Positions 2,424-63,214 of a stretch of DNA of 64,000 nucleotides are shown piece after piece (positions within the stretch are counted from its first letter, which is position 1; every line of letters starts with the position of its first letter). The position numbers were made by a program, and so were the translations under genes. The DNA is taken from contig NZ_JAQNDN010000024.1 of assembly GCF_028369095.1 (NCBI RefSeq), forward strand, positions 757,253-821,252, given 5' to 3'. The notes beneath the pieces are model-generated. The model was not told the origin of the DNA. It searched no databases and saw only the letters and a list, made by a program, of their open reading frames with translations. This stretch comes from Nannocystis radixulma. GTDB lineage: Bacteria > Myxococcota_A > Polyangia > Nannocystales > Nannocystaceae.

Positions 2424-5306
2424 ATGGTTGCGGACCTCGCCGATGCGATCTTCCCCCGGCCCGCGCGCCCCGGTGCGCCCTTGACCCGCGCTGCACCCTC
2501 CGGGGCTCGCCCCTGGGCCCTGCTGTGGCTGGCCCTCGGCCTCGGCGCCGCGGCGGCGCTGCATCGCTTCGGTCCCGACGTTCCTGTCCTTTTGTTCACC
2601 CTGCCCGAGTGGCTGGAGGCCAGGCTGTCGGAGGCCGGCGACCGCACGCTGGTGCTGGCGCGCCCGAGCGTGCTGTGGCTCATGCCGGTCGCGCTGCTGC
2701 CGTTCCTCGTCGCGGTCGCGCGCCGCTCGCTGGTCGACCTGCCGGCCTGGCAGGTGGCGCTGCAGCTCGGCGCGCGCGTGCTGCTGCTGCTGGCGCTGGC
2801 GCTGGCGCTGGCCGCCCCGAGCCTGCAGGCGCCGCGGCGCGGCAAGACGGTGGTGGTGGCCGTCGACGTGTCGGCCAGCGTCGACGACGGTCAGCTGGCG
2901 GCGTTCACGGCGGTCGCCCGCGAGGTCGTCCGCCTGGTCCGCGGCGAGACGGGCGACCGCGACGACCGCACGCGCCTGCGCCTCGTGACCTACGCGAGCC
3001 GGGCGGCGGCGCTGCCTCTGTCCGAAGGGACAGATGAGGTGCAGCTGTCCCGAGAGCCAGGCGGTGGGCTGGCCAGCGATCACGCCGGGGCGCTGCGGCT
3101 GGCCGAGGCGCTGCTCGACCCCGACACCGAGGGCCGGGTGGTGCTGGTCAGCGACGGGGCCGCCAGCGTGGCCGAGCGCACCGACCTGATCGCGGCGGCC
3201 GAGGGCCTGCGCCGGCGCGGGATCACGCTGCACACCCGCACGGCCGCGCCGGCGGCCCGCGGCGACGTGCTGGTCGCCGGGGTCCACCTGCCGGGCGAGC
3301 TGCGGGTCGGGCAGACGTTCGACGCGGCGATCGACGTGTGGGCCTCCGAGCCGCGCACGCTCAAGCTGTTCGTCGACAAGGACGGGCAGCCGAACGCGCT
3401 GTCGCCGAGCGTCGAGGTGGCGCTGCGCGGCGGGCCGCAGCAGATCAAGGTGCCGGTCCGCGCCAACGCGCCGGGGCCGATCGTGATCGCGGCCCGCCTG
3501 GACGCGGCCGAGCTGGCGGCCGCCGACAACCGCAGCCTCGACAACGACCGCGCGGCGGCCGTCGGCGAGGTCCGCGGGCGGCCGCGCGTGCTCTTGGTCG
3601 GCGAGGGCGATCCGTCGGGCGCGCTGGCGCGGGCGCTGCGGGCCGACCACCTGCAGGTCGACGCCGAGGCGGCGTCGGCGATCCCGGGCGCGGCCGAGGG
3701 GCTGGCGTCGTACGACCTCGTGATCCTGTCGGACGTGCCGTCGCGCCACGTGTCGGGGGCGCAGCAGCAGGCGATCGCGAAGTGGGTCCAGGACGGCGGC
3801 GGCTTCGTGATGATCGGGGGCGAGAGCGCGTTCGGGGTCGGCGGCTGGGGCGGCAGCGTGATCGAGGACGTGCTGCCGGTCCGCTTCGAGGGCGAGCGCC
3901 AGCGCGAGCAGCCGACGCTGGCGCTGGTGCTGGTGATCGACAAGAGCGGGTCGATGTCGAGCGAGGACCGCCTCGACCTGGTCAAAGAGGCAGCTCGCTC
4001 GACGGCCTCGACGCTCGATCCCGGCGACGAGATCGGGGTGATCGCGTTCGACTCGCGCCCGGTCACGCTGGTGCGCCTGCAGCCGGCCGCCAACCGCATT
4101 CGGATCGCCGGCGACATCCGTCGGCTCAGCGCCGGCGGCGGGACGAATGCGCTGCCGGCCCTGCGCGAGGCGTACATGCAGCTCGCGGGCAGCAAGGCGC
4201 TGGTCAAGCACGTGATCCTGCTGTCCGACGGGCAGTCGCCGGAGACCGGGGTGTCGGCGCTCATCACCGACATGCGCGACGCCGACATCACGGTGTCGGC
4301 CGTCGGCGTCGGCGCGGGCGCGGGCAAGGACTTCCTGGCCCGCGTCGCCGAGCGCGGGCGCGGCCGCTACTACTTCAGCCAGGACGGGACCGATGTGCCG
4401 CGGATCTTCTCCCGCGAGACGCGCGAGGTGACCCGCAACGCGGTGGTCGAACGCGACCTGTTCGCGCGCGTGGCCAAGAGCGCCCAGGTGCTGCGCGGGA
4501 TCGATTTCGATCGCGCGCCCGGGCTCGGCGGGGTGATCCCGCTGAAGACCAAGCCGCTGGCGGAATTGCTGCTGCGCACGCACGTCGGCGATCCGCTGCT
4601 GGTCCGCGGCCGCCGCGGGCTCGGCCGCACGGTCGCGTTCGCGTCCGACGCCAAGCCGCGCTGGGCCCACCGCTGGATCGCCTGGGAGGGCTTCCCCAAG
4701 TTCTGGTCGCAGGTGGCCCGCGATGTGATGCGCCAGGGCGCCGCATCGCTCGGCGGGGCGTCGCTGCGGATCACGCCCGGCGCCGACGAGGGCAGCTTCC
4801 GCGCGGTCGTCGACCTCGACGCCAGCACCGGCTTCGTCAGCGACCTGCGCGGCGAGCTGCAGGTGATCGACCCGTCCCTTCCTGCTGGTACCGAAGGACA
4901 TACGACGAAGCTGACGACCCAGCTGACGGCGCCGGGCCGCTACGAGGCGACGGTGATCGGGGTGCGCGCGGGCCAGCGGCTGATCAAGGCGCAGATGTTC
5001 GACGACGGCCAGACACCGCCGCGGCTGGTGGCCGAGGCGACCGGCCAGGCGAGCGTGCCGTACCCGGCCGAGCTGGCGCCCGACCAACTCGGCGCCGACC
5101 CGGCCTGGCTGGCGACGCTGGCGCCCGAGGGCACGCACGCGGGGCCGATCGACGCGGTGGTGACGAGCCCCGGCGCGCCGCAAGGGACGCGCCAGCGCCC
5201 GGTCTGGCCCGAGGTGCTGTGGGCGCTGGCGCTGCCGCTGTTGATCCTCGACCTGCTGCTGCGCCGGGTGGCGTTCGGCCGGGCGCGCCGCGGCGAGATC
5301 GGGTGA
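2424..5306 (+). CDS. Large membrane protein with two von Willebrand factor A domains and a glutamine-amidotransferase-like domain (BatA-like N-terminus)
   Basis: Internal ATG at 2424 (MVADLADAIF…). Hydrophobic N-terminal helices; MIDAS motifs VVVAVDVSASV and LVLVIDKSGSM; the segment LVILSDVPSRHVSGAQQQAIAKWVQDGGGFVMIGGESAFG; a C-terminal transmembrane helix. Confidence 0.85.
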   Translation: MVADLADAIFPRPARPGAPLTRAAPSGARPWALLWLALGLGAAAALHRFGPDVPVLLFTLPEWLEARLSEAGDRTLVLARPSVLWLMPVALLPFLVAVARRSLVDLPAWQVALQLGARVLLLLALALALAAPSLQAPRRGKTVVVAVDVSASVDDGQLAAFTAVAREVVRLVRGETGDRDDRTRLRLVTYASRAAALPLSEGTDEVQLSREPGGGLASDHAGALRLAEALLDPDTEGRVVLVSDGAASVAERTDLIAAAEGLRRRGITLHTRTAAPAARGDVLVAGVHLPGELRVGQTFDAAIDVWASEPRTLKLFVDKDGQPNALSPSVEVALRGGPQQIKVPVRANAPGPIVIAARLDAAELAAADNRSLDNDRAAAVGEVRGRPRVLLVGEGDPSGALARALRADHLQVDAEAASAIPGAAEGLASYDLVILSDVPSRHVSGAQQQAIAKWVQDGGGFVMIGGESAFGVGGWGGSVIEDVLPVRFEGERQREQPTLALVLVIDKSGSMSSEDRLDLVKEAARSTASTLDPGDEIGVIAFDSRPVTLVRLQPAANRIRIAGDIRRLSAGGGTNALPALREAYMQLAGSKALVKHVILLSDGQSPETGVSALITDMRDADITVSAVGVGAGAGKDFLARVAERGRGRYYFSQDGTDVPRIFSRETREVTRNAVVERDLFARVAKSAQVLRGIDFDRAPGLGGVIPLKTKPLAELLLRTHVGDPLLVRGRRGLGRTVAFASDAKPRWAHRWIAWEGFPKFWSQVARDVMRQGAASLGGASLRITPGADEGSFRAVVDLDASTGFVSDLRGELQVIDPSLPAGTEGHTTKLTTQLTAPGRYEATVIGVRAGQRLIKAQMFDDGQTPPRLVAEATGQASVPYPAELAPDQLGADPAWLATLAPEGTHAGPIDAVVTSPGAPQGTRQRPVWPEVLWALALPLLILDLLLRRVAFGRARRGEIG

Positions 5307-5700
5307 GGCGGCGGCCGGCATCGGGCCGGTGAGTCATGGTCGATTGGGCATGTCGCAAGGGACAGGTAGTCTGGCGTTCGGCCGCGGCGAGATGTCGGGT
5401 GAGGCGCGGGCCGGCATCGGGCCGGTGAGCCATGCGTGAGGGAGCATGTCGAAAGGGACATGTCGTCGTGGCGTTTGAAGGGCCGGCGAGATGTCGGGTG
5501 AGGCGCGGGCTGGCAGGGGCCGGAGCTGGGCGAGGTGGAATGTGTGGCGTTCGGCCGGCGCGCCGCTGGAGACAGGGTGAGGCGGGGCCGGCAGGTGGCC
5601 GGGCTGAGGTCGAAGGAGAATGTCGCCATGGACATGCCGTAACAGTCATGTCTTTGTGGGCATGTGCTTGAGGGCATGTTTCAAGGGTCATGGTGAAAGC
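5288..5700. repeat. Tandem array of about four degenerate ~95-bp repeats that starts inside the last codons of the vWA gene; its AT-richer units also carry 14-bp-phased CATGTC motifs
   Basis: cgcggcgagatcgggtgaggcggcggccggcatcgggccggtgag spans the vWA stop. It recurs as cgcggcgagatgtcgggtgaggcgcgggccggcatcgggccggtgag at ~5381, again at ~5481 and again at ~5553. Each unit ends in a GGACATGTC-type segment. Confidence 0.7.
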
Positions 5701-5836: not shown

Positions 5837-6685
5837 ATGCAGCGGGCCGGCTCTCACTTCCGACACGATCGCGCCGCGGCGGCGCTGGCGGTGCTGCTCG
5901 GCTGCCACGCGGCCGAGTACGAGGGGATCGACGGGATGGCGCCGGAGCGAGCTTCGGAGTGCGTGGAGCCAGGCGCACGGTGGTTCAGCTTCACGGGCAC
6001 GCCGCAGGCGTTCGTGGTGCCGGAGTGCGTGACGACGCTGACGGTCGAGCTGTGGGGCGCGCAGGGCGGGCCGAGCCGCTGCGGCACCGACGACGAGCAC
6101 GGCCTGCCCGACGTGCAGGAGGACGGCGGACACGGAGGCCGATTGCGAGCTGTCCTTTCGGTCAGCCCCGGCGACATGGTGCTGGTGTACGTCGGCGGCC
6201 GCGGAGGCCTCGACGGCGCGCCCGGCTGGAACGGCGGCGGCAGCGGCGGGAGGTGGGGCGGCGGCGGCGGCGGAGCGTCGGACGTGCGCCTGAACGGCGC
6301 GAGCCTGGTCGACCGCGCGCTGGTGGTCGGGGGCGGCGGCGGCGGCGTGTGCGGCTATCCGGATCACGGAGCGGGCGGCCACGGCGGCGGGCTGGTCGGG
6401 GAGGACGGGGTAGTGGGCGACGTGAACTGGCGCGCAGGTGGCGGCGGACAGCCGCACGCGGGTGGCACGGGCGGAGCGGCGCCGGGTCAGCCCGGCGTGT
6501 TCGGGCTCGGCGGCGGAGCGGCCGGCTATCACGTGGCCGGAGGCGGCGGCGGCTGGTACGGCGGTGGCGGAGCCTTCGGGGCCGGCGGAGGCGGCGGTTC
6601 GTCGTACGTGGGCCCGGCCGGCAGCGAGGCGGAGCTCGAGATCGGGGCGCGCGACGGCGATGGTGTGGTGGTGATCAGCTGGTGA
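5837..6685 (+). CDS. Glycine-rich domain protein (PF12810-like), probable lipoprotein
   Basis: Internal ATG at 5837 (MQRAGSHFRHDRAAAALAVLLGCHAA…). Motif FSFTGTPQAFVVPECVTTLTVELWGAQGG followed by long GGGG runs, ending VVISW. Confidence 0.8.
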   Translation: MQRAGSHFRHDRAAAALAVLLGCHAAEYEGIDGMAPERASECVEPGARWFSFTGTPQAFVVPECVTTLTVELWGAQGGPSRCGTDDEHGLPDVQEDGGHGGRLRAVLSVSPGDMVLVYVGGRGGLDGAPGWNGGGSGGRWGGGGGGASDVRLNGASLVDRALVVGGGGGGVCGYPDHGAGGHGGGLVGEDGVVGDVNWRAGGGGQPHAGGTGGAAPGQPGVFGLGGGAAGYHVAGGGGGWYGGGGAFGAGGGGGSSYVGPAGSEAELEIGARDGDGVVVISW

Positions 6686-7200
6686 GCGCGCCGAACCGCG
6701 AGCGGACGATCGCGAGGCGAGCTCGAGAGCGAGACGCGCGGACGGTGTGGATGCAGAGCCGCGGAGCGGCGCGTCGCGAGGCACGGCTCTGAGACGCGGA
6801 TGGAGGCAGGCGACGGCGTCGGGGCGGTGCAGATCTGCCAGTGCGCGCGGCGTGATCCAGGTTCCCAGGTGAGCGGGTCGAATTGCGAGCGGGCGGTAGC
6901 GAGACGCGGAGCAGGCGAGGTCGCAGATCTGCTGGCAGTGAGCGCGATGGGATCGAGGCGCACAGGTGCGCGTGCCGAGATGCGAGCGGACGATAGGACG
7001 TCGTCGGGGCGGTGCAGAGCCAGGTTCCCAGGGAGTGCATCGCGACGCGGATGGAGATCTGCTGGCAGTGAGCGCGGTGTGATCGAGGTTCACAGGTGCG
7101 TGTACCGAGATGCGAGCGGACGGCAGCGGGACGCGGATGGAGATAGGTGACGTGGTCGATGGGGTGCAGATCTGCCAGTGAGCGCGGAGTCATCCAGGTC
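6665..7200. repeat. Degenerate ~100-130-bp tandem repeats, about four copies, seeded from the 3' end of glycine-rich gene 1
   Basis: The gene ends gtgatcagctggtgagcgcg. Copies of gcagatctgc(tgg)cagtg(a/c)gcgcgg…gatccaggt.cacaggtg.g occur at ~6829, 6923, 7052 and 7166. gagacgcggatggag recurs at 6791, 7044 and 7128. Confidence 0.65.
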
Positions 7201-10976: not shown

Positions 10977-12035
10977 ATGGAGTTCGCGCGGCTGGCGGAG
11001 GCCCTCGGCGGCGAGACGATGGCGGTCGAGGCGGGCGGGCGCAGCGACCTGGCGCCGTTCGTGCTGCGCTTCGGGACAGGTCCCGAAGTACAGGTGTATC
11101 CCGAGCTGCTGGAGGGCGCCTGCGTCGGCGCGGTCTTCGTGGTCGCGCGGGCCGACGCGGCCGAGACGCCGCGGATCGTGCTGCGGGCCGAGGACGCGAT
11201 CGACCGCGGCGGCAAGGCGCTCGGGATCAACCGCGAGCTGCAGCTCGGCGACGCGGCGTTCGACGCGGCGGTCTACGTCGAGTCGGAGGCCCCCGACGCG
11301 CTCGTGGCCCAGGTGCTGGCGGCCCCGGCGGCCCGCTCGGCCGCGCAGGCGCTGGTGCGCGGGCCGGCAGGCGAGGTCCAGCTCGGCGAGGGCCGGGTGA
11401 CGGCGAAGCTGACGGCGGACCAGCTCGAGGCGCCCGCGGCCGCGACCGAGCTGCTGGCGTCGCTGCGGGCGCTGGCGGGGGCGATGGCTGTCCCGAAGGA
11501 CATGCCGACCCGCGCCGAGCTGGTGCGCCGGCGCCCCGTCGGCCACATCTTCGCCATCGCGTTCGCGTGGCTGGTCACGCTCGCGCTGGCAGTGGTGCTG
11601 CGCCCGCCGCAGGTGCTGGCGTGGCAGCCGGTGTTCGCGGGGATCGGGATCGGGGGACTGCTGTGGATGATCGTGTGCGGCGGGCTGGCCCTGGTCCTGC
11701 GCGGCGCGCCCGACTCGCTGCGCTGGCTGTCGATCTGCGCGGCGGCGTTCCTGCTGACGACGCCGTTCGCCGGGATGAAGCTGGCGCTGTACGCCAACGC
11801 TGCCCTCGACGCCGGGCCGGAGGAGGCGCTCCGCCTGCCGGTGCGGGTGGTCGACCGCGGGGAGACCCGGGTGGTCATCGAGGTCGAGGGGCTGGTGCTC
11901 GGGCAGTCACCGACGCGGCTGCATGTCCCGATGGACAGGGTCGTCGGGACATTGCCGGAAGAGCCGGTGATTCTGACGCTCACGACTCGCCCGGGCGCGC
12001 TCGGCTGGGCGTGGCTCGTCGATGTGCGGCGGTGA
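10977..12035 (+). CDS. Hypothetical integral membrane protein
   Basis: 352-aa ORF with several hydrophobic helices in its C-terminal half. Its antisense alternatives are R/G-rich. Confidence 0.5.
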   Translation: MEFARLAEALGGETMAVEAGGRSDLAPFVLRFGTGPEVQVYPELLEGACVGAVFVVARADAAETPRIVLRAEDAIDRGGKALGINRELQLGDAAFDAAVYVESEAPDALVAQVLAAPAARSAAQALVRGPAGEVQLGEGRVTAKLTADQLEAPAAATELLASLRALAGAMAVPKDMPTRAELVRRRPVGHIFAIAFAWLVTLALAVVLRPPQVLAWQPVFAGIGIGGLLWMIVCGGLALVLRGAPDSLRWLSICAAAFLLTTPFAGMKLALYANAALDAGPEEALRLPVRVVDRGETRVVIEVEGLVLGQSPTRLHVPMDRVVGTLPEEPVILTLTTRPGALGWAWLVDVRR

Positions 12036-14044: not shown

Positions 14045-14112
14045 GCGGGTGCGCCAAGGGACATGTCGAATCAGGCATGTCGTGAAAGACATGCTGGCGA
14101 GGGCATGTCTGT
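14045..14112. repeat. Array of 14-bp-phased CATGTC repeats upstream of the peptide-rSAM operon
   Basis: gggacatgtcgaatca ggcatgtcgtgaaa gacatgctggcgag ggcatgtctgttc gaccatgtcagcg. The region is AT-richer than its surroundings. Confidence 0.6.
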
Positions 14113-14121
14113 TCGACCATG

Positions 14122-15459
14122 TCAGCGCGAGCCCAGCAGGGCGCGGCGCAGCACGCTGGGGTGGAACAGGGCGCTGCTCGGGCGCAGCAGGTGCAGCACC
14201 TCCATCATGCGCAGCTGGACGTCGGGCGAGCGGGTGGCGGCGCTGAAGATCCGGTCGACCAGGCGGTGCATGACCTTGAGGCCAGGTGACGGTTTGCCGG
14301 TGGTCCCGGGCCAGCGCAGATCGTCGCCGACGGCGGTCATGAAGGCGGCCTGGTTGCCGGCGGCGAGGCGCTTCTGAAAGCGCAGGCCGGGCGGCTGGCC
14401 GGGGCGGGCGCGCAGCTCGGCGTCGAGGTGGGTCGAGGCGACGGCGGCGACGCTCATGCCCTGGCCGTAGACGGGGTTGAGGGCGCAGGCGGCGTCGCCG
14501 AGCACGACGAAGCCGTGCGGCCAGCGGCGCAGGCGCTCGTAGTGGCGCAGGCGGTTCTCGGTCCGGCGATAGCCGTGGATGCTGCTGCACGGGGTGGCGC
14601 CGGCCAGCGCGTCGCGCAGCGCCGGGGTCCGCAGGCCGCCCGCGAATTCGAGGAAGCCGGCCTCGTCGGTCGGCGGGAAGGCGCCGCCGTAGCCGACCAG
14701 CGTGACGATGTGACGCCCGCCCTCGACCGCGTACACGACCCCGCCGCGCGGGTTCTGGCCCGGCTTGCCCATGATGTAGAGGACCTTCCAGTCGGGCCGC
14801 GCGCGCAGCTCGTAGAGGCGGGTGACGTAGCCGAGCTGGGCGTCGATGACGGTCTCGGCGGGCTCGGGGTAGCCGAGCGCGGCCAACCAGGTCGGGGCCT
14901 TCGAGGCGCGGCCGCTGGCGTCGACGACCAGGTCGGCGCGCAGGTCGTCGGCCGCGAGCTCGGGCGCGCCGGCGCGGCGGTGGACCTGCACGCCGACGAT
15001 CCGGTCGCCCGTGGCCTGCAGACCGGTAACCTCGTAACCGGCGTGGATGCGCACGCGATCGTCGGCGACGAGGCGCGCGCGCACGTTCCACTCGAGCAAG
15101 CCACGGGTGCAGGCGCGCGAGCGCAACGGCGAGGGCCCGCGCGGCATGAGGCCGAACGGGGTGTGCCACTCGACGTCGGCCAGCCAGTCGTACTCGTGCG
15201 CCCCCGCGGCCGCGAGCGCGTCGCCGAGGCCGGGGAACTGCTCGCTCAGGATCTGCCAGCCGCGCGTCAGCAGGACGTGGACGTGGTGGCTCTGCGGGGC
15301 ACCGGCGCGCGGCTCCGGTCCGCCCGGCAAGAGGTCGCGGTCGAGGACGGTGACGCGCTCGTAGTGACGCGTGAGCACGCGAGCGGCGAGGAGGCCGGCG
15401 ATCCCGCCGCCGATCACGAGCGCGCGCCGATTCGCCGGCGCGGAGCCTGATGTGGGCAT
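14122..15459 (-). CDS. FAD-dependent monooxygenase / oxidoreductase
   Basis: Internal ATG at 15457-15459. VIGGGIAGLLAARVL is a GxGxxG dinucleotide-binding fold, and the family-typical GDAAH-like motif LGDAACALNPVYGQG is present. Confidence 0.8.
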   Translation of the reverse strand: MPTSGSAPANRRALVIGGGIAGLLAARVLTRHYERVTVLDRDLLPGGPEPRAGAPQSHHVHVLLTRGWQILSEQFPGLGDALAAAGAHEYDWLADVEWHTPFGLMPRGPSPLRSRACTRGLLEWNVRARLVADDRVRIHAGYEVTGLQATGDRIVGVQVHRRAGAPELAADDLRADLVVDASGRASKAPTWLAALGYPEPAETVIDAQLGYVTRLYELRARPDWKVLYIMGKPGQNPRGGVVYAVEGGRHIVTLVGYGGAFPPTDEAGFLEFAGGLRTPALRDALAGATPCSSIHGYRRTENRLRHYERLRRWPHGFVVLGDAACALNPVYGQGMSVAAVASTHLDAELRARPGQPPGLRFQKRLAAGNQAAFMTAVGDDLRWPGTTGKPSPGLKVMHRLVDRIFSAATRSPDVQLRMMEVLHLLRPSSALFHPSVLRRALLGSR

Positions 15460-17149: not shown

Positions 17150-17554
17150 CGAATGGCCGGCGGCTCGCGCGTGCGAGCCGCCGGCGATAATGCCACGAGA
17201 GTCCATGAGGACATGGCGATATCGACATGTTCTCATGGACATATTGAGCAATGCTCGCGCCGCGAGCATGGCTGCGTCGATGGAGAATGTCGCGAGCACG
17301 CAAGATCGTGCGCGGCGGCCCGCGGACACAGGAACTTCGCGACCGTGGTCGTTGCGAGGGAGATCGCCCGCCTTCTGCAAGCCGAGGCGGGGCGGCCGGC
17401 CCGCCCGCGGTCGACCGGGACGGGCGCGCGGGCGCCTGCTGGGGGGCCGTAGCCGCGGCAGTGGCTCCCGGCGATGCGCGAAAACGCTCTCTGCCGAGTA
17501 GGGGCTGTGCCACTCGTCGGCGGGACCACGGTGAGCGAAAGTCGGGCCTCCGGC

Positions 17555-21760: not shown

Positions 21761-23125
21761 GTGCCGCCGGCGGCGAGGGCCAAGATCGTGGGCGTCCTCG
21801 CGTGGCTCACGGCAATGGCCCTCGTCGTCGCGTGCGCCAGCAATCAGTCGTGGCGCTACACGCCGCCGGAGTTGCCCACGGAGGCGCCGCCGGTGGTCGC
21901 GCCGCGGGTCGAGCGGATCGGCGCAGGGCTGCTGCACGTGCGTCGCGCAGGCCCGACGGTGGCGATCGGGCTGGCCTTGCGGACATCTGGGGCGGTAAGC
22001 CCTTCGCTGGCGAGCTTCACCCTCGATCTGGTGGCCCGCGGGCCCGATCGCGCGGTCGAGGACGCGCTCGGCGAGTACGGCGGGGCGCTCACTGCCACGT
22101 GGCTCGGCGACGGGGCGCTGCTGCTGGCCGAGGTCGATGCGGCCGCGTGGGCGCCCGCGCTGGCGACGATCGCGTCGGCGGTGCGCCAGCCGGAATTCAC
22201 GCCGGCCGACGTCGAGGTGCTGCGGGACGAGCGACTGGCGGCGATCCAGCGCCGCGACGGCGATCCAGCGCGGCGTGGCCTGCACACGCTGGTGCGCCGC
22301 GTCGCGCCGAACCTCGACGCGCTCGGCGAGGCGCGCCCGACGGCGCGCTGGTCGATCGAACATGTCCGAATGTCGCATGCCCAATTGCTGCGCGAGGGCG
22401 AACCGACGCTGGTGATCGTCGGCGATCTGCCGCGAGCCGAGCTCGAGCGGGCCGTCGCCGGCCTCGGCGGATGGGGCGTCGCCGCGGCGGAATCGATGTC
22501 TCCGGCCGCGCCAGCGCAGGCCCGGAGCGAGGTGTTGGTGGTACCGCGGCCCGGGCTGGCGCAGACGGCCATCGCCGTCGGTCGCGCGGTCGAGGGCGCC
22601 GACGACCTCGCGCTCGAGCTGGCCGCGGCGGTGGTCGGCTCGGCGCTGCGCGAGGTGCTGCGGCGCGATCGCGGCGATACGTACGGAGTGTCGGTGACGC
22701 ACACGCCGGCGCGCGGTGGCGGCCTGCTGGCGATCGAGACCCAGGTCGAAGCGGCCGCCACCGGGGCGTCGCTGCGGGCGATGATCTCGCAGCTGAAGAC
22801 GGTGCAGGGCCGCTTCCTGACCGGCGACGTGCTGCGGCTGCTCGGCCGCGCGTTTCAGATCGAGCGCATGCTGAGCCACCAGCGCGTGGCCGACGTCGCC
22901 GCCGCGGTGGCGCAGCTCCACGTGTCGGGCCGGCCCGACGACGCTCTGGCGGCCGAGCTGCGCCGGCTCGGGGCGGTGCGCGACGACGACATCGAGCGCG
23001 CGCTGACGATGTGGTTCGAGCCCGCCGCGCTGCAGATCGTGCTGGTCGGCGATCCGGCGACGATCCGCGCCCAGGTCGAGCCGCTCGGCCTCGGTCCGCT
23101 GAAGATCGTGGATGACGGGTCCTGA
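21761..23125 (+). CDS. M16-family peptidase second subunit (probably non-catalytic), lipoprotein; start uncertain
   Basis: Same ORF as 21494..23125. A GTG at ~21761 gives an N-terminal lipoprotein signal, KIVGVLAWLTAMALVVACAS. The alternative ATG at 21587 overlaps the upstream stop (ATGA) but would place the signal peptide 60 aa into the protein. Confidence 0.6.
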   Translation: MPPAARAKIVGVLAWLTAMALVVACASNQSWRYTPPELPTEAPPVVAPRVERIGAGLLHVRRAGPTVAIGLALRTSGAVSPSLASFTLDLVARGPDRAVEDALGEYGGALTATWLGDGALLLAEVDAAAWAPALATIASAVRQPEFTPADVEVLRDERLAAIQRRDGDPARRGLHTLVRRVAPNLDALGEARPTARWSIEHVRMSHAQLLREGEPTLVIVGDLPRAELERAVAGLGGWGVAAAESMSPAAPAQARSEVLVVPRPGLAQTAIAVGRAVEGADDLALELAAAVVGSALREVLRRDRGDTYGVSVTHTPARGGGLLAIETQVEAAATGASLRAMISQLKTVQGRFLTGDVLRLLGRAFQIERMLSHQRVADVAAAVAQLHVSGRPDDALAAELRRLGAVRDDDIERALTMWFEPAALQIVLVGDPATIRAQVEPLGLGPLKIVDDGS

Positions 23126-23201
23126 AGGACATGTCCGGATGGACATCTGAGAACGCGGCCGGGCGGGAACAGGCGGCCCGACCGGCGCGTAGAGCCCGGC
23201 G

Positions 23202-38340: not shown

Positions 38341-38480
38341 GACATGTCGCTACGGACAGGAGTCGCAGCGCGGCCGGGCGCGGAGGGCGCAGAATATGTG
38401 CCTGAATGGACATGTTCATATATTCATGGCTTGTGGCAATCTGGATAAGACATGACCCAATGGACATGTGAATATGTTCA
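38340..38480. repeat. AT-rich array of 14-bp-phased GGACATGT repeats upstream of the ParA-like/TPR gene
   Basis: gacatgtcgctacggacagg … ctgaatggacatgttcatat attcatggcttgtg … gacatgacccaat ggacatgtgaatat gttcatgtccgaat ggacactcccgaag. Confidence 0.6.
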
Positions 38481-38623
38481 TGTCCGAATGGACACTCCCG
38501 AAGAGACGGTCGGACTCGTTGCAGCCAGGCAGACCCGCGGGGCGCGACGGGTGAAACCGCACGCCGACGGGGGCACGGGCGGCGTGCGGCGCGGGGCGCA
38601 CGCGGGTAGAAGGGGTCGCAGGC

Positions 38624-46559: not shown

Positions 46560-46870
46560 GCGCGAAGGACATGTCCGGAGGGACATGGCGCGAGCGAGGG
46601 GAGGTGATGTCCGGAAGGATGGAGGGGATCCGTGTGTGCGAGCGAAAGGTGATGTGCGGAGGGGCAGAGGGGTCGCGTGCGTCGGGAGGCCGGCCGAAGG
46701 GCGGTGCGCGCGAAGAATGCGCATTTGGATGTGGCGTCAAGGGAATGTCTGATACGACATGCTCTCCGAGACATGCCCGATCCGGGATGTCTCGACGAGA
46801 TGGGCATCTGGACATGTCGCCGAGGGAATGTCCGCCACGACATGCTCTCTGTGACATGCCCGATCCGGCA
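46560..46870. repeat. Two blocks of 14/15-bp-phased CATGTC repeats; the second block is itself a duplicated ~60-bp unit
   Basis: gcgaaggacatgtccggagggacatggcg at ~46563. gggaatgtctgatacgacatgctctccgagacatgcccgatccgggatgtctcgacgag at ~46740 is repeated as gggaatgtccgccacgacatgctctctgtgacatgcccgatccggcatgtctcgaggg at ~46810. Confidence 0.65.
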
Positions 46871-46881
46871 TGTCTCGAGGG

Positions 46882-48201: not shown

Positions 48202-48654
48202 ATGCCGAAGGACGCGAGCGTGGGTGTCGGACGCGTCGGAACCCGCGGGGCGGTGACCTGGGCTCTCGCGCTCGCGTGCGCCTCGCCACCGAGACCTGCG
48301 CAGGCGCAGCCGCCAGCGCCCGGGGTGGTCACGCCGGCCGGAGAGCTTCAGGCCTGGCGGGCCAAGCGGCGCAGCTTGCAGCTCGTGACGGGACTCTCGG
48401 GAGGGTTCATGGCGGCGAGCTTCGTCACCGGCGCGAGCATGCTCGCCTGGCTGTTCTGGCCGCGAGCCACCGACTGCCTCGACTGCGACAACGACGGGTT
48501 CGGGGAGGCCTGGACGGCGATCGTGATGCTGCCGACCGCGGCGCTGCTGGCGATCCCGACCGGGATCTTCGGCGCGCGGCTGCGGCGTCACGAGCGGGCG
48601 CGCCCGAGCGCCCGCATCCGGCCGGCACCCGGAGGGTTGAAGATCCAATTTTGA
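48202..48654 (+). CDS. Hypothetical small membrane protein
   Basis: Internal ATG at ~48202. A signal-like N-terminus followed by two hydrophobic helices. Confidence 0.35.
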   Translation: MPKDASVGVGRVGTRGAVTWALALACASPPRPAQAQPPAPGVVTPAGELQAWRAKRRSLQLVTGLSGGFMAASFVTGASMLAWLFWPRATDCLDCDNDGFGEAWTAIVMLPTAALLAIPTGIFGARLRRHERARPSARIRPAPGGLKIQF

Positions 48655-48757
48655 GACATGTTCTCGTAGACATGGTCAAATGGCCATGTCCATGAGAACA
48701 TGTCTATCGATACAGCTGCGGCTCGGCCCGCGGTACGACTCGCGCGCCGCGCCTCGC

Positions 48758-53598: not shown

Positions 53599-56500
53599 AT
53601 GTCGACGCCGCCCCACACGCCGCCCGACACACCGTCCGCCCGCGGCGCAGGTGCGGGCACGTGGGCCGACGTCGACGTCCATCGTCTCCACGCACGCGTC
53701 ATGGGCCGACTGTTCGGCGAGCCGGCGGCGCCGACCACCATCGGTCGTTTTCGCGTCGAGCGGCGGCTCGGGGCGGGGGCCATGGGCGTCGTGTATGCGG
53801 CCGTCGACGCCCAACTCGGCCGCCGCGTGGCGATCAAGTTGCTGCACCCGCACCTCCAGGGCGACGAGCAGGGTCGCGCCCGTCTGTTGCGTGAGGCCCG
53901 GGCGATGGCCCGCCTCGAGCACGAGCACGTGGCGCGGATCTACGAGGTCGGCGCGTGGGGCGACCAGGTCTACATCGCCATGGAATTGATCGAGGGCGTG
54001 ACCCTCGAGGCCTGGCTGCGCGAGCGCCCGCGGCCGTGGCACACGGTGCTCATGGTGTACCTGCAGGCCGGACGGGCGCTGGCCGCGGCTCACCACGCGG
54101 GCCTGCTCCACCGCGACTTCAAGCCCGAGAACGTGCTCGTCGACAACCGCGGCCGCGCCCGCGTCCTCGACTTCGGCCTCACCTGCGCCCTCGATGCCGG
54201 CGAGAGCCTCGACGACGAGCTCGAGCCGCTGACGCGCACCGGCAGCATCCTCGGCACGCCCGCCTACATGGCGCCCGAGCAGCAGCGTTACGGCGCCGCC
54301 GAGCCGCGCTCCGATCAGTTCAGCTTTTGCGTGGCGCTGTTCGAGGGGCTGTTCGGACTGCGCCCGTTCGGCTCGGTTCCGCGCTTCGGGCAGGTCGAGA
54401 TCGCACCCATTCCGCGCGAAAGTCGCGTGCCTCCGCGCATCCGCCGCGCGATCGCCCGCGGCCTGTCCGAAAAGCCCGACGCCCGCTGGCCGACGATGGA
54501 CGACCTGTTGGCTGCTCTCCAGCCGCCGCGGCGGTTCGCCCGCGAGCCCGGAGCGGGTCGCGCGCGGACGGTCCTGATCGCCGGCGGAGCGGCCGCGGCC
54601 GCGGCCGGGCTGGTCGCGCTCGGGGTGAGCCTGGCCCAGCCCGAGGCAGGCCCGGTCACTTCGGGCGAGGCGCCGCCGGCGAGCGTGGGCGAGGTCGTCC
54701 CGTTCGCCGCCGACGAGCTCGCGGCCGAGCGCGCGGCGGCCGAACGCCACGCCCAGGCGCTGCGGGTCCGCGACGCCGCGTTCTCGTTGTTGCCGCGCGA
54801 CCCGACGACCGCAGCGCTGCTGCTGCGCGAGCTCGACGACCCCGGAGCGCTGGCGCAGCGGGTGCTGGCCGAGCCGATCAGCGCGGCGATCCTGCGCGGT
54901 CACGAGGGGCCGGTGCTGACGGTGCGCTGGGTCGAGGCGCCAGCCGCGGGCGGAGCTGTCCCCGGGGACAGGCAGGGTCCGGACGGCGGCGCGACCGCCG
55001 ATGCCGGCGCGGCTGTCCCTTCAGACAGGTCCGCGGGGGGCGAAGGCGCACCTGTCCCTTCGGACAGCTCCGGGTCGGGCGGCGCCGCGCCTGTCCCTCT
55101 GGACAGCTATGCGATCGAGACCATCGACGCCGCCGGCGGGCTGCGCCGGTTCGCCACCAGCGGCGGTCCGGCGAGCACGTCCGCCCGCGCCCCCGCGTTC
55201 GACCCGCGGCGCGGCCCCGCCGGCGAGCAGCTGCGGACCGACGCGCGCGGGCAGGTCTCGCTCGAGGCGGGCGGGCGCGTCGTCGCCATGCGCGGCGTCA
55301 GCGGCCCGCTCGCCGCCGTCGCCTGGAGCCCGGACGGAGCCCAGGTGGCGGCAGCCGGGCCGCGCGGCGAGGTGTGGCTGGTGGCCGACGGCCGCGCGCT
55401 GGCGATCGGCAACCGCGGCGCGGCCGTCAGCGCGCTCGCGTGGGACCGCTCCGGCCGCCAGCTGGCAATCGGCCGCGACGACGGCGGCGTCGACGTCTGG
55501 CGCGTCGACGGCCGCGCGCGCCGGGTGTTCTCGGTGGTCGGCGACGGCGGCGTGACGAGTCTGGCTTTCGGGACAGGTTGGCTCGCCAGCGGCAGCGACG
55601 ACGGCAGCGCGCGGGTGTGGCGGCTCGGCGGCGCGGCACGGCCGTACGTGCTGCGCGGGCACACCGGCCCGGTGCGGGCGCTGGCGTTCGCGCCGACCGG
55701 CGTCCGCCTGGTCAGCGGCAGCGACGACGGCAGCGCGCGGGTCTGGCGGCTCACGCCGGCGGCCCTGCGCGAGCACGACGTCGGCGCGGCGGTGCACGCG
55801 GTCGCGTGGAGCCCCGACGGCACCAGGCTGGCGGCGGCAGGGACCCGCAGCGTGTGGTTGCTGCCGGTCGACGGCGGGCCGGTGCGCCGCCGCGACCACG
55901 CCGGCACCGCGCTCGCGCTGGCCTGGCGCCCCGACGGCCAGGAGCTGGCGATCACCGACGATTCCGGCGCGATCACCTGGCTGCCCGTCGGCGAGGGCGC
56001 CACCCGGCGCGCGGCCGTCGATCGCCGGTCCGTGCCCGCGCTCGCGTGGGACCCTCGCACCAGCCGCCTGGCCGCCGGCGGCAGCGACGGCAGCTTTTTC
56101 ATCTGGCCTCCAGGACATGTCTCGGAGAACATGCCCGAGCCGACCCGCGCCGCCCAGGGCCGGGGGCCGATCACCGCGCTGGCGTGGTCGCCGGTCGACG
56201 AGCGCCTGGCGGCCGTGACCGCGACCGGCTTCGTGCTGGTGCGCGTCGAGCAGACCGTGTTCATCGAGCTGGGCCAGCCGCTGCGCGCGCTGGCCTGGAG
56301 CCCCGCCGGCGACGCGCTCGCGGTCGCGGGCGAGGGCAGGGCGCTGGTGCGGATCGCCGCGGCCACCGGGGTGCGCAGCGAGGTCGGACGCGCCGGCGCG
56401 CCGCTCGACAGCGTCGCCTGGGATCCGCAGGGCACGTGGATCGCCGCCGGTGCGGCCGACGGCGAGCTCCACTTCTGGTCGCTGCAGGGCGACGACGGCC

Positions 56501-57122: not shown

Positions 57123-57169
57123 GCATTCGTCGCCGCCGGGCGGGTGCCCGCGGCCTTCAAGGAGAGCGC

Positions 57170-60110: not shown

Positions 60111-60328
60111 GATCCTCACCCACCACGAAGACCGCCCGGGCAGATCTGGCGACCTGCCCGGGCGGTTGCCTGTCTGCTCCTCGACATGTCCGAAAGGACA
60201 GCTGAGGGCGCCGCCGCGAGGCGGGCCGGCGGGCCGTCGTTCGCGCCGGCGCGCCGGCAGGGGCGAGGGCGCTCGCGCGCGAGGTCGCGCTCGCCGGGCG
60301 AGACGGAGGTCGTGTACCGTGCTCAGCG

Positions 60329-63214
60329 GTGGGTGCCCCCTCGCCCGACGACACGCGCACCGGGCCCTCCGGTGTGGACCTGCTCGCGACCACCGACGGG
60401 CGCTCCCCGGCGCTCGACGTGACCGCCCGGGCCCGCCCGAGCGCGATCGAGGAGACGGCTCTGGCCCCGCCTGACCGCAAGGACAGCGTCACGGCCCAGC
60501 AGACCTCGGGCATCAGTGTGCGCGGCGCCGCGGCTGCGCTCGACGACTCGCTGGCGATCCGTCAGTCGCGCCGGATCGGCCGCTACGCGATCCTCAGCGA
60601 ACTCGGGGAGGGCGGCATGGGCGTCGTGCTGTCCGGCTACGACGAGGTGCTCGAGCGGCGCGTGGCGATCAAGCTCGTGCGCTCGCACCACCGCAACGAC
60701 GAGCGCCTGCAGGCGCGATTGTTGCGCGAGGCGCAGGCGCTGGCCCGCCTGTCGCACCCCAACGTGGTCCAGGTCTACGAGGCCGGCACGATCGGCGACG
60801 AGCTTTTCATCGCCATGGAGTTCGTCCGCGGCGTCACGCTGTCGGCCTGGCTCGACGACCGCGAGCGCAGCCCGCAGGACATCCTCACCGTGTTCGCCGA
60901 GGCCGGTCGCGGTCTGGCAGCGGCCCACCGCGTCGGCCTCACCCACCGCGACTTCAAGCCCGGCAACGTCCTCGTCGACCTCGAGGGCCGCGTCCGCGTG
61001 GTCGACTTCGGCCTGGCCGCGCTCGCCGAGCAGGCCGAGCGGTCCGAGGACGGCGAACTCGGCGGCGCGGCGCTCGAGCGCACCGCCTTCGTCGCCGGCA
61101 CGCCGGCGTACATGGCCCCGGAGCAATGGCTCGGAGGACAGGTCGACGCCCGCACCGATCAGTTCAGCTTCTGCGTCGCGCTGTGGGAGGCGCTGTGGGG
61201 CGTGCGGCCGTTCGCCGGCGAGACCGTCGACGAGCTGCGCGAACAGGTCCTGGTCGCCGATCTGCCCGAGCGCGGGCAGGTCGGCCCGCGCGTACCGCCG
61301 CGGCTGTACCGGGCGCTGTCCCGCGGCCTCGCGCGCGCCCCCGATGCGCGCTACTCGAGCATGGACGCGCTGCTGGCCGACCTCGCCGGGCCGCAGGTGC
61401 GAGCCCGCCACGCCGTGGTCGGCCTCGGCCTCGCCGTCGTGGTCGGCCTCGCCGCGGCCGCCTACAGCCTGCACGAGCCCGATCGCTGTGGCGGCGGCGA
61501 GGCCCGGCTGATCGGCGTGTGGGACCCGGCCCGCCGCGACGCCGCCGCCGACGCCTTCGAGGCCGCCGACGTCGACTTCGCCGACGAGGCGTGGACGCAG
61601 GTGGCCGCGCGCCTCGACGCTCGCGCCGACGCGATCGCGACCATGCACCGCGAGGCCTGCGAGGCCCACGCCCGCGGCGAGCAGTCGGAGCGCCTGCTCG
61701 ACCGCCGCATGGCCTGTCTTTCAAGACATGTCCATGAGGTCAAGGCGGTCACCGACCTGCTGGTCGCCGCCGACGCCGGCGTGGTCGAGCGGGCGGTCGA
61801 CGCCGTCACCGCGCTGCCGCCGGTCGAGCGCTGCGCCGACCTCCCGGTCCTGCAGGCCGAGCTGCCGCCGCCCGACGATCCCAACACCGCGCTCGCCGTC
61901 GACGCGGTGCGCCGCCAGCTCGCCAACGTCGCCGCGCTCGAGCACACCGGCCGCTACGAGGCCGGCCTGCTCGCCGCCGAGGCGGCCGTCGCCGCCGCCG
62001 AGGCCGCCGCCTACAGCCCGGTGGTCGCCGAGGCCCTGCTCGCGCGCGGGCGCCTGCTCGCGCTGGTGCACCGCGACGGCGAGGCCCACGTCAGCCTGAT
62101 GTCGGCCTTCACCACCGCCACCGCGAGCCACGAGGATGCGGTCGCCCGCGACGCCGCGGCCGCCCTGGTCGAGGCCCTCAACAGCCTCGGTCGCCTCGAT
62201 CACGCCGAGGTCTGGCTGCAGATCGCCACCGCCGCCCAGAGCCGCGCGCCCGACGACATCTCCGCCGCTTTCCTCGACTTCGCCCGCAGCAAGCTGCTGT
62301 GGTCGCTCGGGCGCTACGCCGAGTCCGAGGTCGCCATCGAGCGCAGCGTCGCCGCCTACGACGCCCTCCACGGCGCCGACAACCCCGACACCGCGCGCGC
62401 CCGCCAGTGGTTCGGCACCGCGCTGTGGGCCCGCCAGGAGTTCGCCCGCTCGCAAGCTGTCCTTCCGGACAGCCGCACCCGCCTCGAGCGGCTCTACGGC
62501 CCCGACCACCCCGAGGTCGCCGCCGCCCTGCGCTACGAGGGCAGCCTCTACTTCGTCCTCACCGACTTCGACGCCGCCCTGGCGACCTGGCGCCGCGGCC
62601 TCGACATCATCCGCCGCGCTCACGGCGAGGACGATCCGCTGGTGGTCGTGTTCCAGGGCAACATCGCCGCCGCGCTGGCCCGCAGCGGCCGCCCGGTCGA
62701 CGCCGTCGCCGCGTTCGAGGCGGTGGTGCGCTCGCTCGAGCGCCGCCTCGGCCCCGACCACATCGAGCTGTGCTCCCAGCTCGACAACCTCGGCGAGTCG
62801 TACCTCGGCGCCGGCCAGCTCGACCGCGCGCGCGAGGTGATCGACCGCTCGCTGGCGATCCGCCGCCGCGTGCTGGGCGAGAGCCACGCCGAGGTCGCGC
62901 GCTCGCTGCTCGGCCTCGGCGAGTGGGGCATCCGCGCCGGCGACCTCGCCACCGCGATCCCGGCGTTCGAGCGGGCCCTGGCGATCCGCGCCGGCACCGA
63001 CGTCCACGCCCTCCTGCGCGGCCGCGCCGAGTACGGCCTGGCCCGCGCGCTGTGGCTGTCCGACCGCGACCGCCCGCGCGCTCGCGTCGTCCTCGACCAG
63101 GCCGTCGCCACCTTCACGGCCCTGGGCCTCGCCGGCTCGATCGACCTCGCCGAGGCCGTCGCCTGGCGCGCCGCGCACGTGGAGGGCGCCGACGCCGTGG
63201 CGTCGCAGAAGTGA
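60329..63214 (+). CDS. Ser/Thr protein kinase with a long C-terminal TPR/helical repeat region
   Basis: [24 protein letters not shown] and APE. The C-terminal half has a periodic helical-repeat composition. The start at the 60329 GTG is uncertain. Confidence 0.85.

Follow-up and report, generated by a model that had tools for sequence, protein, structure and literature searches.

The uptake sequences of Pasteurellaceae (USS) and Neisseriaceae (DUS) occur about once per kb in genus- or family-specific 'dialects', are found inside genes in certain favored frames, dictating the peptides encoded there, and form inverted pairs past genes. The REP, BIME and REPIN elements of Enterobacteria and Pseudomonas are mobilized by RAYT tyrosine transposases (PMC3116915, PMC3337134), the palindromic word HIP1 (GCGATCGC) of cyanobacteria is over-represented beyond codon-aware expectation (PMC5861425, PMC4390886), and the Rickettsia palindromic elements (RPE) are in-frame palindromic repeats in unrelated genes, to which they add peptide segments at tolerant sites (PMC10969869). 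Here we analyzed a 64-kb stretch of DNA from Nannocystis radixulma (the window) together with loci of related genomes and found a palindrome, with the consensus [C/A]TGTC[C/T]-N4-[G/A]GACA[T/G] and the preferred flanks R-S-M...K-G-Y, that is probably a DNA-level, REP- or HIP1-like iterated element of one genus, the mechanism being the part that we infer.

The exact form CTGTCC-N4-GGACAG occurs five times in the window (3018-3033, 54956-54971, 55052-55067, 55091-55106 and 62457-62472) against an expectation of 0.00, and 18 times at one mismatch or fewer against 0.21 (the one-mismatch copies being 11488-11503, 11923-11938, 55013-55028 and 10 others); none of 100 dinucleotide shuffles of the window reached these counts. 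The same was true of 1000 synonymous-codon shuffles that kept protein sequence and codon usage fixed, in which the window's coding sequences (CDS) were expected to hold 0.05 exact palindromes and hold 5. An earlier note on this DNA had reported such genic palindromes, and they are indeed real and above codon-usage expectation, with 13 at one mismatch or fewer against 0.92 expected and a shuffle maximum of 4; a frequency no higher than codon usage predicts, which that note had named as the outcome that would speak against it, is not what we found (27 at two mismatches or fewer, 6.0 expected). In total the core motif has 45 sites in the 64 kb where 1.6 are expected, and the overall density of approximately 0.6-0.7 per kb, that is, roughly one per 1-2 kb, implies by extrapolation thousands of sites per genome. 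Strong codon bias and high GC content inflate many oligomers, but chance or a codon-usage artefact of this 73% GC genome has next to no likelihood as the cause, and we rejected it because no shuffle reached the counts, the spacer is strict (N4 in 18 of 19 matches when spacers of 2-8 were scanned, the others giving practically none) and the sampled loci of equally GC-rich relatives are free of the motif. In the profile of 188 oriented sites the 5' flank reads G-R-S-M and the 3' flank K-G-T-C, the hairpin base has no tetranucleotide of the GTAG type, and the surroundings of the units have no longer MITE-like consensus in common, the sharing ending at the unit of about 16-22 bp.

The motif was present in every Nannocystis locus sampled and had no match in the sampled loci of Enhygromyxa, Plesiocystis, Pseudenhygromyxa and Polyangium. 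Its density was 1.4-3.8 sites per 10 kb in loci of Nannocystis isolates and Nannocystaceae MAGs, and 0.5 per 10 kb in the sole low-density Nannocystis MAG locus (L009), in a sample of which much is orthologous and stems from one chromosomal neighborhood. Nucleotide identity within the genus is 81-93%, which makes site conservation at that depth uninformative. Among the approximately 200 called genes of the sampled loci none matched Y1_Tnp, and no RAYT/Y1 transposase or binding protein was identified there.

Genic copies and the intergenic motif are one element, as the note had proposed; the former sit outside Pfam domains and use the rare codons GCT, CCT, AGG and TCT. Frame 1 is preferred among 82 CDS sites (59 sites; frame 0 has 16 and frame 2 has 7) and yields the peptide x-V-[P/L/R]-x-D-[S/R/M]; other copies read L-S-x-G-T. 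The note had each copy encode (A)VPxD(S/R), which is correct for the membrane-protein sites at 11488 and 11923 and for four kinase copies but fails at 3018 and 62457; its sites exist, with positions off by 3-18 nt (for example, 3036 for 3018 and 62462 for 62457). The exact palindrome CTGTCCgaagGGACAG (3018..3033) of the vWA-domain gene (approximately 2481-5306) is read in frame 0 as P-L-S-E-G-T-D, and the orthologous place is exact in N. pusilla (L001, 2343) and has one mismatch in three further loci (L004, L005 and L006). In the glycine-rich (ALK_LTK_GRD) gene, the one-mismatch copy CTGTCCtttcGGTCAG (6150..6165) corresponds in N. pusilla to TGACCtttcGGTCA, where a change in the opposite arm restores pairing. 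Two copies lie in frame 1 of the membrane-protein gene (10977-12035). At the former, CTGTCCcgaaGGACAT (11488..11503, A-V-P-K-D-M), Ala is encoded by the rare GCT (2.2% of Ala codons) in 8 of 8 sequences, namely the window and seven Nannocystis-clade loci with protein identities as low as 51-54%, and Polyangium homologues have ALPAPSARP in place of the peptide and no palindrome. At the latter, ATGTCCcgatGGACAG (11923..11938, H-V-P-M-D-R), orthologues retain AGG, a rare codon for Arg (2.1%); the site takes the perfect form CTGTCC...GGACAG in N. punicea and is missing from a MAG (L007) that nevertheless shows no length change there. A third membrane-protein site, placed by the note at about 11061, did not hold up, since gggacaggtccc (11073-11084) is built differently, from 5-bp arms around a 2-nt spacer, and its translation is G-T-G-P. 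The HTTM-domain gene carries ATGTCCgttgGGACAT followed at once by GTCC (that is, GGACATGTCC; 36749..36764) and weaker copies at 36974-36989 and 37486-37501. The STK-TPR gene (60329-63214) has a one-mismatch copy in its N-terminal region ahead of the kinase domain (60471..60486), perfect at the same place in N. bainbridge; a core copy TGTCCatgaGGTCA preceded by TGTCTttcaAGACA (61728..61743) between the kinase and TPR domains by their Pfam limits; and, just ahead of the TPR repeats, the exact palindrome CTGTCCttccGGACAG (62457..62472, frame 1, A-V-L-P-D-S), which N. exedens and N. bainbridge share without change.

The most striking case, also in the note's judgment, is the Ser/Thr kinase-WD40 gene (53599-56760), with four copies within 54956-55107. 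These plus-strand units (54956, 55013, 55052 and 55091) are spaced by 57, 39 and 39 bp, are all in frame 1 and encode AVPGDR, AVPSDR, PVPSDS and PVPLDS. The stretch had been described as a linker, yet it is not conserved as a linker would be. It is inserted in frame (54940..55110) and hypervariable: it is present in 8 Nannocystis sequences, ranges from 3 units (N. pusilla) to approximately 10 (N. exedens) and is missing from the more distant orthologues, at 52-58% identity. Across species the arms of the units are intact, the loops vary and the spacers are unrelated, and codon periodicity is lost inside the insertion. Local duplication or slippage may produce arrays of this kind.

It could be argued that V-P-x-D(S/R) is itself a functional short peptide, such as one used for docking or cleavage, that recurs in signaling and membrane proteins, and the DNA symmetry a side effect. 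The preference for frame 1, the conservation of AVPKDMP in the membrane-protein family within the Nannocystis clade, and the location of the copies outside Pfam domains are in line with this. However, flanking rare codons (NCT before V and AGN after D) are kept though the peptide needs none, frame-0, frame-2 and intergenic copies encode other peptides or nothing, homologues outside the clade lack the peptide, and nearby orthologues lack the kinase insertion. The window has 10 VPxD peptides where 4.4 are expected, 6-7 of them encoded by the motif, and the motif-free sister genera show no enrichment, with 5 against 6.6 expected, none of them motif-encoded; VPxD outside the motif is at or below expectation in Nannocystis. 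VPxD is not what is maintained because its excess consists of motif-encoded copies and is confined to Nannocystis. The peptide reading is therefore largely refuted, and we regard it as extremely improbable: the upkeep of the motif takes place at the nucleotide level, and VPxD is what the motif yields when read in the frame best tolerated in proteins.

The gene context of the motif was counted over the 147 sites of seven loci with database gene calls. CDS hold 73 of these sites, in frame (0.52 per kb), and intergenic DNA is 6-12 times denser in the motif than genes: convergent regions reach 6.4 sites per kb (9 of 16 regions with the motif) and tandem regions 3.4 per kb, with 33 of 43 sites in the stop-proximal half. 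Only 2 of 20 divergent regions carry it, and one divergent region (L033/L034) has 7-8 units. Sites cluster 0-90 nt past stop codons, many lying directly at the stop ahead of any other hairpin, and arrays with an exact period of 14 bp as well as doublets spaced by 33 nt occur. Two abutting units (484..514) start 2 nt past the stop of the minus-strand gene 516-1436, and another two (23117..23146) overlap the stop codon of gene 21815-23125. The cluster past the vWA gene (5287..5680), where six other genomes also have a motif cluster in this intergenic region, comprises tandem repeats of 96 bp that each contain one degenerate unit (5350, 5446) and a 14-bp-period stretch (5620-5680), and an array of CATGTC/GACATG with the same period (14059..14125) fills the gap between the convergent genes 13582-14085 (plus strand) and 14122-15486 (minus strand). 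A doublet with the complementary loops atga and tcat (17199..17242) lies 50 nt past a stop, just after a separate 13-bp GC-rich hairpin. Directly past the HTTM gene stop (38340..38495) the unit GGACATGTCGctacGGACAG precedes an AT-rich segment that contains three half-units (GGACATGT) as well as TGTCCgaatGGACA. Downstream of the minus-strand gene 46882-47895 are two 14-bp-period arrays of about 3 and 10 units (46567..46880), and an array plus doublet (48654..48710) stands about 50 nt past the stop of the minus-strand gene 48758-49981, its long hairpin adjoining a GC-rich one. The unit GACATGTCCgaaaGGACAG (60182..60201) lies 76 nt past the stop at 60110 and about 15 nt beyond a 14-bp GC-rich hairpin (60130-60168); in the alignment this hairpin is conserved and the unit is kept in four species, with the doubly changed CTGTCTgaaaAGACAT in N. 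bainbridge. Past the STK-TPR stop (63214), one unit and five tandem 14-bp units of GGGCATGTCC-NNNN occupy 63262..63400.

As the note had supposed, the units are capable of forming hairpins. A single unit folds as DNA with -4 to -5.6 kcal/mol, and the doublet 17199-17242, folded alone as DNA, forms one 17-bp hairpin of -16.5 kcal/mol (z = -6.5); the RNA fold of 17145-17265, which includes the GC-rich hairpin, also has z = -6.5. Against shuffles, the arrays at 46567..46880 gave z = -3.8 and the array and doublet at 48654..48710 gave z = -5.5, and arrays and doublets adjoin distinct GC-rich hairpins of 13-14 bp. The stem, of 5-7 bp with A/T pairs and with no T-run after it, is not that of an intrinsic terminator. 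The paired variant TGTCT-N4-AGACA was observed 14 times, where independent half-sites would give 1.4, and two compensatory changes between orthologues were seen; most one-sided mismatches are uncompensated. Since single mismatches show no bias toward G-U wobble pairs, the case for selection on pairing depends chiefly on a single stem position, and the paired changes could equally stem from subfamilies that descend from distinct master copies. The polarity of the loops follows GC skew, being just about 2 standard errors above the skew of neutral sites, and lends weak support to a single-strand, replication-linked mechanism.

These features can also be read in terms of the DNA duplex or of RNA. 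Under the former reading, which we think unlikely, the element would be a word recognized in double-stranded form, in the manner of HIP1 and uptake sequences, the 16-bp palindrome being read by a putative dimeric DNA-binding protein (nucleoid-associated, serving uptake or self-recognition, or partnering an orphan methyltransferase), with the hairpin incidental and selection or copying drive keeping the word frequent wherever it is tolerated. The fixed 4-bp spacer sets TGTC and GACA one helical turn apart, as in winged-helix dimers. Known operator patterns are ATGT-N8-ACAT for the PadR type and CTGT-N8-ACAG for the LexA type, and the geometry [A/C]TGT-N8-ACA[T/G] fits both of these patterns. 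An ordinary transcription-factor operator would be found in promoters at tens per genome, which agrees neither with the scarcity of the motif in divergent regions nor with the thousands of sites that its density implies. The density of the motif resembles that of HIP1 and uptake sequences, the sequence and not pairing alone is conserved (mismatches mostly uncompensated, without wobble bias), and substitution-born genic copies are kept with rare codons, as reported for HIP1 (PMC5861425). What a plain binding word would not lead us to expect is the joint change of the inner stem pair on both sides (14 against 1.4), the strong bias toward 3' flanks, arrays of units abutting with a 14-bp period, and doublets whose loops are complementary. 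Under the RNA reading, the transcribed palindrome would be a small stem-loop that, in coding sequence as well as in intercistronic stretches and 3' UTRs, serves 3'-end protection, aids termination or offers a site to an RNA-binding protein; this would account for the sites 0-90 nt past stops, many directly at the stop ahead of other hairpins, and for a motif that convergent regions carry and divergent ones hardly ever do. E. coli REPs act as RNA-level 3' elements, the loops are often GAAA, GCAA or UUCG-like, and some changes are compensatory. We nevertheless hold this to be quite unlikely: there was no Rfam family match, the sense-strand loops are unpolarized (21 purine-rich, 18 pyrimidine-rich), G-U wobble is not preferred, a single unit is weak (5-6 bp) and has no U-tract after it, and at several places the motif comes after a conserved and much stronger GC-rich hairpin, which makes the better candidate for a terminator.

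The REP- or HIP1-like reading, which we consider the probable one, would have a small hairpin- or cruciform-forming DNA element that behaves like REP/BIME and is recognized by a putative sequence-specific protein. Such an element would multiply or persist where it is least harmful, past stops and between convergent genes, and would be tolerated inside proteins in loops and linkers when its length is a multiple of three. Some genic copies may have been born by substitution rather than insertion and then kept over deep divergence, and because substitution-born copies are kept, selection or copying bias would favor the word itself, as for HIP1 and uptake sequences. Candidate roles are 3'-end insulation or mRNA protection, DNA topology and nucleoid structure. 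The likeness to REPs is weakened because classical REPs shun CDS and about half of the copies here are genic, because some copies arose without length change, because the GTAG signature is absent and no longer MITE-like consensus was found, and because one divergent region carries 7-8 units. More tentatively, the element may be a genus-specific word of thousands of copies, upheld by selection or copying drive and possibly served by a putative dedicated reader protein, that forces rare codons and peptides and expands in frame into hypervariable kinase loops; this is a possibility to which we give rather less than even credence. It would then be the myxobacterial counterpart of HIP1 and uptake sequences with a foldable, REP-like architecture, read for example in replication, in the control of DNA topology at gene ends or in self-DNA recognition.

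That a nucleotide-level signal and not protein function sets some amino-acid stretches and rare-codon choices in Nannocystis genomes is relevant to annotation, to codon-based inference and to the reading of 'conserved peptides' in myxobacterial proteins. The variable in-frame arrays of the Ser/Thr kinase offer a ready strain-typing marker and possibly a source of protein diversity. To the few short-word cases (REP, HIP1, USS/DUS and RPE) the element adds a high-GC, large-genome lineage at about one copy per 1-2 kb, and its combination of features otherwise split among those systems could help to part 'selfish spread' from 'selected function'.

Like REP, BIME and REPIN elements, of which REPs reach hundreds to thousands of copies, the Nannocystis units are short, lineage-specific imperfect palindromes that lie 3' of genes and between convergent genes, are scarce in promoters, occur as singles, clusters and inverted doublets with longer folds, and show paired stem changes. 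Unlike REPs they are shorter (16-22 bp with a 5-7-bp stem), have no GTAG-type flank, keep an exact 14-bp period in arrays and are about half genic, in frame and in some cases conserved with rare codons. With HIP1 the element shares an over-representation, inside genes as well as between them, that a codon-aware null model does not explain. HIP1 is conserved between orthologues, hence maintained and not merely replenished, and the same may hold for the Nannocystis word, whose rare codons are kept at two sites among orthologues of 51-54% identity. HIP1 is a contiguous 8-mer tied to two orphan methyltransferases and with no reported 3'-flank bias, whereas in Nannocystis the word is a palindrome with an interruption (6-N4-6), foldable, array-forming and 6-12 times denser in intergenic DNA. 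The uptake sequences have a comparable density, a preferred genic frame with imposed peptides, and doublets past genes; they are, however, asymmetric words read by the uptake machinery, and the Nannocystis element is intrinsically palindromic with a fixed spacer. The kinase insertion resembles RPE in adding residues in frame to its host protein, but RPE are about 100-150 bp long with a conserved encoded peptide, and the Nannocystis unit is of about 16 bp, has no longer consensus and in several genic copies arose by substitution instead of insertion.

The interrupted palindrome CTGTCC-N4-GGACAG occurs exactly at 3018, 54956, 55052, 55091 and 62457, and a pattern scan of the window found 13 further copies with one mismatch, among them those at 11488, 11923 and 55013. 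Because dinucleotide-preserving shuffles yield 0.00 exact copies and 0.21 at one mismatch, the excess is very large; moreover, when spacers of 2 to 8 bases were scanned, the spacer was exactly four bases long in 18 of 19 matches. The palindrome is thus a defined element and does not merely reflect a sequence generally prone to inverted repeats. The earlier note had allowed that its frequency might simply follow codon usage for Val-Pro-x-Asp. When synonymous codons were permuted 1000 times, with protein sequences and per-gene codon usage held fixed, coding sequences contained 5 exact copies against 0.05 expected, 13 at one mismatch against 0.92 (shuffle maximum 4) and 27 at two mismatches against 6.0, placing the palindrome above that expectation. 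Both kinds of shuffle therefore contradict the reading of the palindrome as a product of chance. The palindromes that had been pointed out are present, although their coordinates were a few bases off. The 14-bp core TGTCC-N4-GGACA, with one mismatch allowed, is found 45 times in the window (1.6 expected), and the core amounts to 135 copies in ~235 kb of Nannocystis sequence, from which several thousand copies per 11-13-Mb Nannocystis genome can be extrapolated.

Within genes the palindrome falls mainly in two frames. Frame 1 (xCT GTC CNN NNG GAC AGx) gives x-V-[P/L/R/H/Q]-x-D-[S/R], and in the window it produces VPxD at 11488 (AVPKDM), at 11923 (HVPMDR) and in four copies in a kinase gene, while frame 0 (CTG TCC NNN NGG ACA) gives L-S-x-G-T. 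The claim that each copy encodes VPxD is incorrect, since site 62457 reads AVLPDS and gggacaggtccc (11073-11084), a different arrangement from the palindrome, translates as GTGP; site 3018 gives LSEGT. Over six loci, 59 genic sites lie in frame 1, with frames 0 and 2 holding 16 and 7, and in none of the seven frame-2 sites is the Cys codon kept. This frame bias is real, and it looks like a filter on the peptides that proteins tolerate. The ATG of cATGTCC was also considered as a start codon (21659, 60186) and was ruled out by frame and by the gene starts of orthologues.

Were V-P-x-D itself a peptide motif, the codons spelling it would be of little account. The palindromes are, however, composed of exactly the codons that are rare in these loci (GCT 2.2% of Ala, CCT 3.4% of Pro, AGG 2.1% of Arg, TCT 1.2% of Ser), and these are kept: at 11488 (ATG GCT GTC CCG AAG GAC ATG) GCT persists in 8 of 8 Nannocystis-clade sequences, down to 51-54% protein identity, and at 11923 the AGG codon is kept in orthologues. 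Polyangium homologues, from motif-free genomes, carry ALPAPSARP at 11488 with the palindrome absent, and the copy arose there by substitution, because there is no length change relative to them. Counts of the peptide also contradict a peptide motif: the window has 10 V-P-x-D against 4.4 expected from composition (6-7 motif-encoded), other Nannocystis loci 10 against 5.5 (9 motif-encoded), and sister genera 5 against 6.6 (none motif-encoded), so the peptide excess is a by-product of the DNA word. Conservation of genic sites within the genus is uninformative at a background identity of 81-93%. What is maintained in the genic copies appears to be the nucleotide sequence, and VPxD is the palindrome's translation in frame 1.

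The four copies reported in the Ser/Thr kinase gene were confirmed at 54956-55106, between the kinase domain and the Pfam-detected propeller and after a WD40-like RGHEGPVLTVRW strand. Orthologues in seven Nannocystis genomes carry 3 to ~10 units of the form AV[P/L/R]xD[R/M]S, frequently with REVVLAS as the spacer; the N. pusilla orthologue, 93% identical, has three units against four in the window, and in orthologues at 52-58% identity the insert is wholly absent. In every species the CTGTCC...GGACAG arms of the DNA are intact, the loops differ and the spacers are unrelated. The unit spacings (39 and 57 bp) are multiples of three, and codon periodicity is lost inside the stretch. Here the repeat has expanded in frame, a kind of event comparable to the Rickettsia palindromic elements (PMC10969869).

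The distribution of the motif across region types was surveyed in seven loci, on the basis of the gene annotations that accompany them. Coding sequence holds 0.52 motifs per kb, convergent intergenic regions 6.4 per kb (9 of 16 regions positive) and tandem ones 3.4 per kb (24 of 62), whereas only 2 of 20 divergent regions are positive, and these two are one orthologous 0.8-kb spacer. Of the 43 sites in tandem spacers, 33 fall within the half proximal to the upstream stop codon, and on both strands the motif clusters 0-90 nt past stop codons. This distribution excludes a role as promoter or operator, and promoter-element and sigma-54/EBP ideas were discarded because the motif lies between convergent genes and is nearly absent between divergent ones. 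The distribution is REP-like, matching classical REP/BIME placement. The motif does not itself serve as the terminator: at several positions, stop codon and motif are separated by a far stronger hairpin, GC-rich and with a stem of 13-14 bp, and downstream of 60110 both this hairpin and the motif are conserved in a four-species alignment.

Hairpins of this kind follow stop codons within a few nucleotides at 17155-17185 and 60130-60168, the latter being unchanged across the four Nannocystis species of alignment A2, and they are likely true intrinsic terminators, though without a clear U-tract. The exception to the 3'-flank rule is the divergent spacer of N. punicea (locus L033, 9233-10000) and N. 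exedens (locus L034, 9185-10000; the second region in each), which has 7-8 units with doublets at 33 nt spacing upstream of a paralogous STK-WD40 gene that holds 8 genic copies of its own.

Aligned sites give the consensus R-S-M-TGTC[C/T]-NNRR-[G/A]GACA-K-G-Y. In spacers, abutting units form arrays of exact 14-bp period (GGACATGTCC-NNNN; 14059-14125, 46750-46880, 63331-63400), doublets with complementary loops make one long hairpin each (17199-17242, 48654-48710; fold z = -5.5 to -6.5), and units also occur within longer tandem repeats, of 96 bp at 5287-5523 and of 85 bp in N. punicea. The 96-bp repeat, with 2.5 copies at 84% matches, is found in the spacer that separates the vWA gene from a glycine-rich gene, each copy holding one degenerate unit, and six other genomes have a motif cluster in the equivalent spacer. 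The sequences surrounding the units were searched for an extended, MITE-like consensus, and none is shared; an Rfam gathering scan of the whole window matched no family.

The sequence of the palindrome itself is clearly constrained. One rival reading takes it for a recognition word in duplex DNA, with no role for folding. A single unit forms as DNA a modest hairpin (-4 to -5.6 kcal/mol), and single mismatches show no wobble-pair preference and are mostly uncompensated. The doubly changed form TGTCT-N4-AGACA is found 14 times against 1.4 expected under independent half-site variation, ~11 of the 14 being independent loci, and there are two orthologous compensations (CTGTCCgaaaGGACAT versus CTGTCTgaaaAGACAT; TGTCCtttcGGTCA versus TGACCtttcGGTCA); such paired changes favour pairing, or copying from variant masters. 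Another rival takes the motif for a transcribed 3'-end stem-loop. Loop polarity does not track transcription direction (21:18) and is mild evidence against a strand-specific RNA role. The purine content of the loops tracks local GC skew, with purine-rich to pyrimidine-rich loops at 38:10 under positive and 15:22 under negative skew (non-orthologous loci; Fisher p = 3e-4). Polarity by replication strand at first looked strong (35:18 versus 5:20), but at neutral sites the replication-associated skew already amounts to 0.10-0.19, compared with 0.28 in loops, so that the loops exceed it by only about two standard errors. We have therefore downgraded polarity to weak evidence and made no use of it for the mechanism; it hints weakly at a single-strand step linked to replication.

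Most of the window has positive GC skew, the cumulative curve peaking near 56 kb. Two N. punicea loci separated by ~1 Mb (L003 and L033) have opposite skews, as do N. exedens loci across the contig ends (L005/L028 versus L034); together with this curve, they place the window near a terminus-type skew switch. At third codon positions, the coding strand also contributes strongly to the skew (about -0.11 to -0.16).

Other features were observed in the window. A large inverted repeat (34796-35058 / 41076-41243), complementary at 100% over 46 nt and at 85% over 132 nt, flanks a ~6-kb segment with HTTM-domain, ParA/TPR and GFA-like genes; this segment may be invertible or mobile. Short AT-rich islands at 35130-35160 (attatagacaataatatgatg) and 38395-38480 (aatatgtgcctgaatggacatgttcatatattcatgg), in a genome of 73% GC, adjoin motif units, are located upstream of genes and may be promoter regions. 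The long spacer 6680-7160 is rich in other repeats (for example, gatctgctggcagtgagcgcg and ggttcccaggtgagc) unrelated to the palindrome, and a near-perfect 15-bp tandem repeat (CCGTCGTGCTCGCGT, 49552-49633; 5.5 copies, 97% matches) lies within or adjoining the minus-strand gene 48758-49981.

The window shares synteny with N. pusilla, N. punicea, N. exedens and N. bainbridge, and its membrane protein (10977-12035) is 94% identical to an N. pusilla protein; an exact-protein lookup of one window gene returned no record. With one mismatch allowed, most Nannocystis loci and one Nannocystaceae MAG contain the 16-mer 1.4-3.8 times per 10 kb, and a lower-GC Nannocystis MAG (L009) contains it 0.5 times. 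The 16-mer is absent from ~20-kb loci of similar GC content in Polyangium species and other Myxococcota, and from the sampled loci of Enhygromyxa salina, Plesiocystis pacifica and Pseudenhygromyxa; in Plesiocystis and Pseudenhygromyxa, a supposedly related motif whose spacer is 2 bases long was dismissed as one-mismatch coding noise. A metagenome scan with CATGTCC-N4-GGACATG returned mostly chance matches in unrelated organisms and only ~10 usable Nannocystis-like contigs. Among the sampled loci, this highly iterated DNA palindrome is limited to the Nannocystis clade.

Taking these results together, we infer that the palindrome probably functions as a small DNA element that can fold and is read by a sequence-specific protein; the element would accumulate where it is harmless and form arrays by local amplification, with selection or a copying bias acting on the word itself, as has been argued for HIP1 (PMC5861425). 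Our confidence in this mechanism as a whole is moderate, because a large part of the sampled loci are orthologues drawn from a single chromosomal neighbourhood near a GC-skew switch. Pfam detected no DNA-binding or transposase domain in the hypothetical genes adjoining the largest arrays, and in the searchable literature we found no description of this motif or of a Nannocystis or myxobacterial repeat, REP or RAYT. The palindrome is best placed as a new variant in the REP/HIP family of iterated palindromes, one with an unusual combination of a 3'-flank, array-forming habit and frequent in-frame genic copies built of rare codons.
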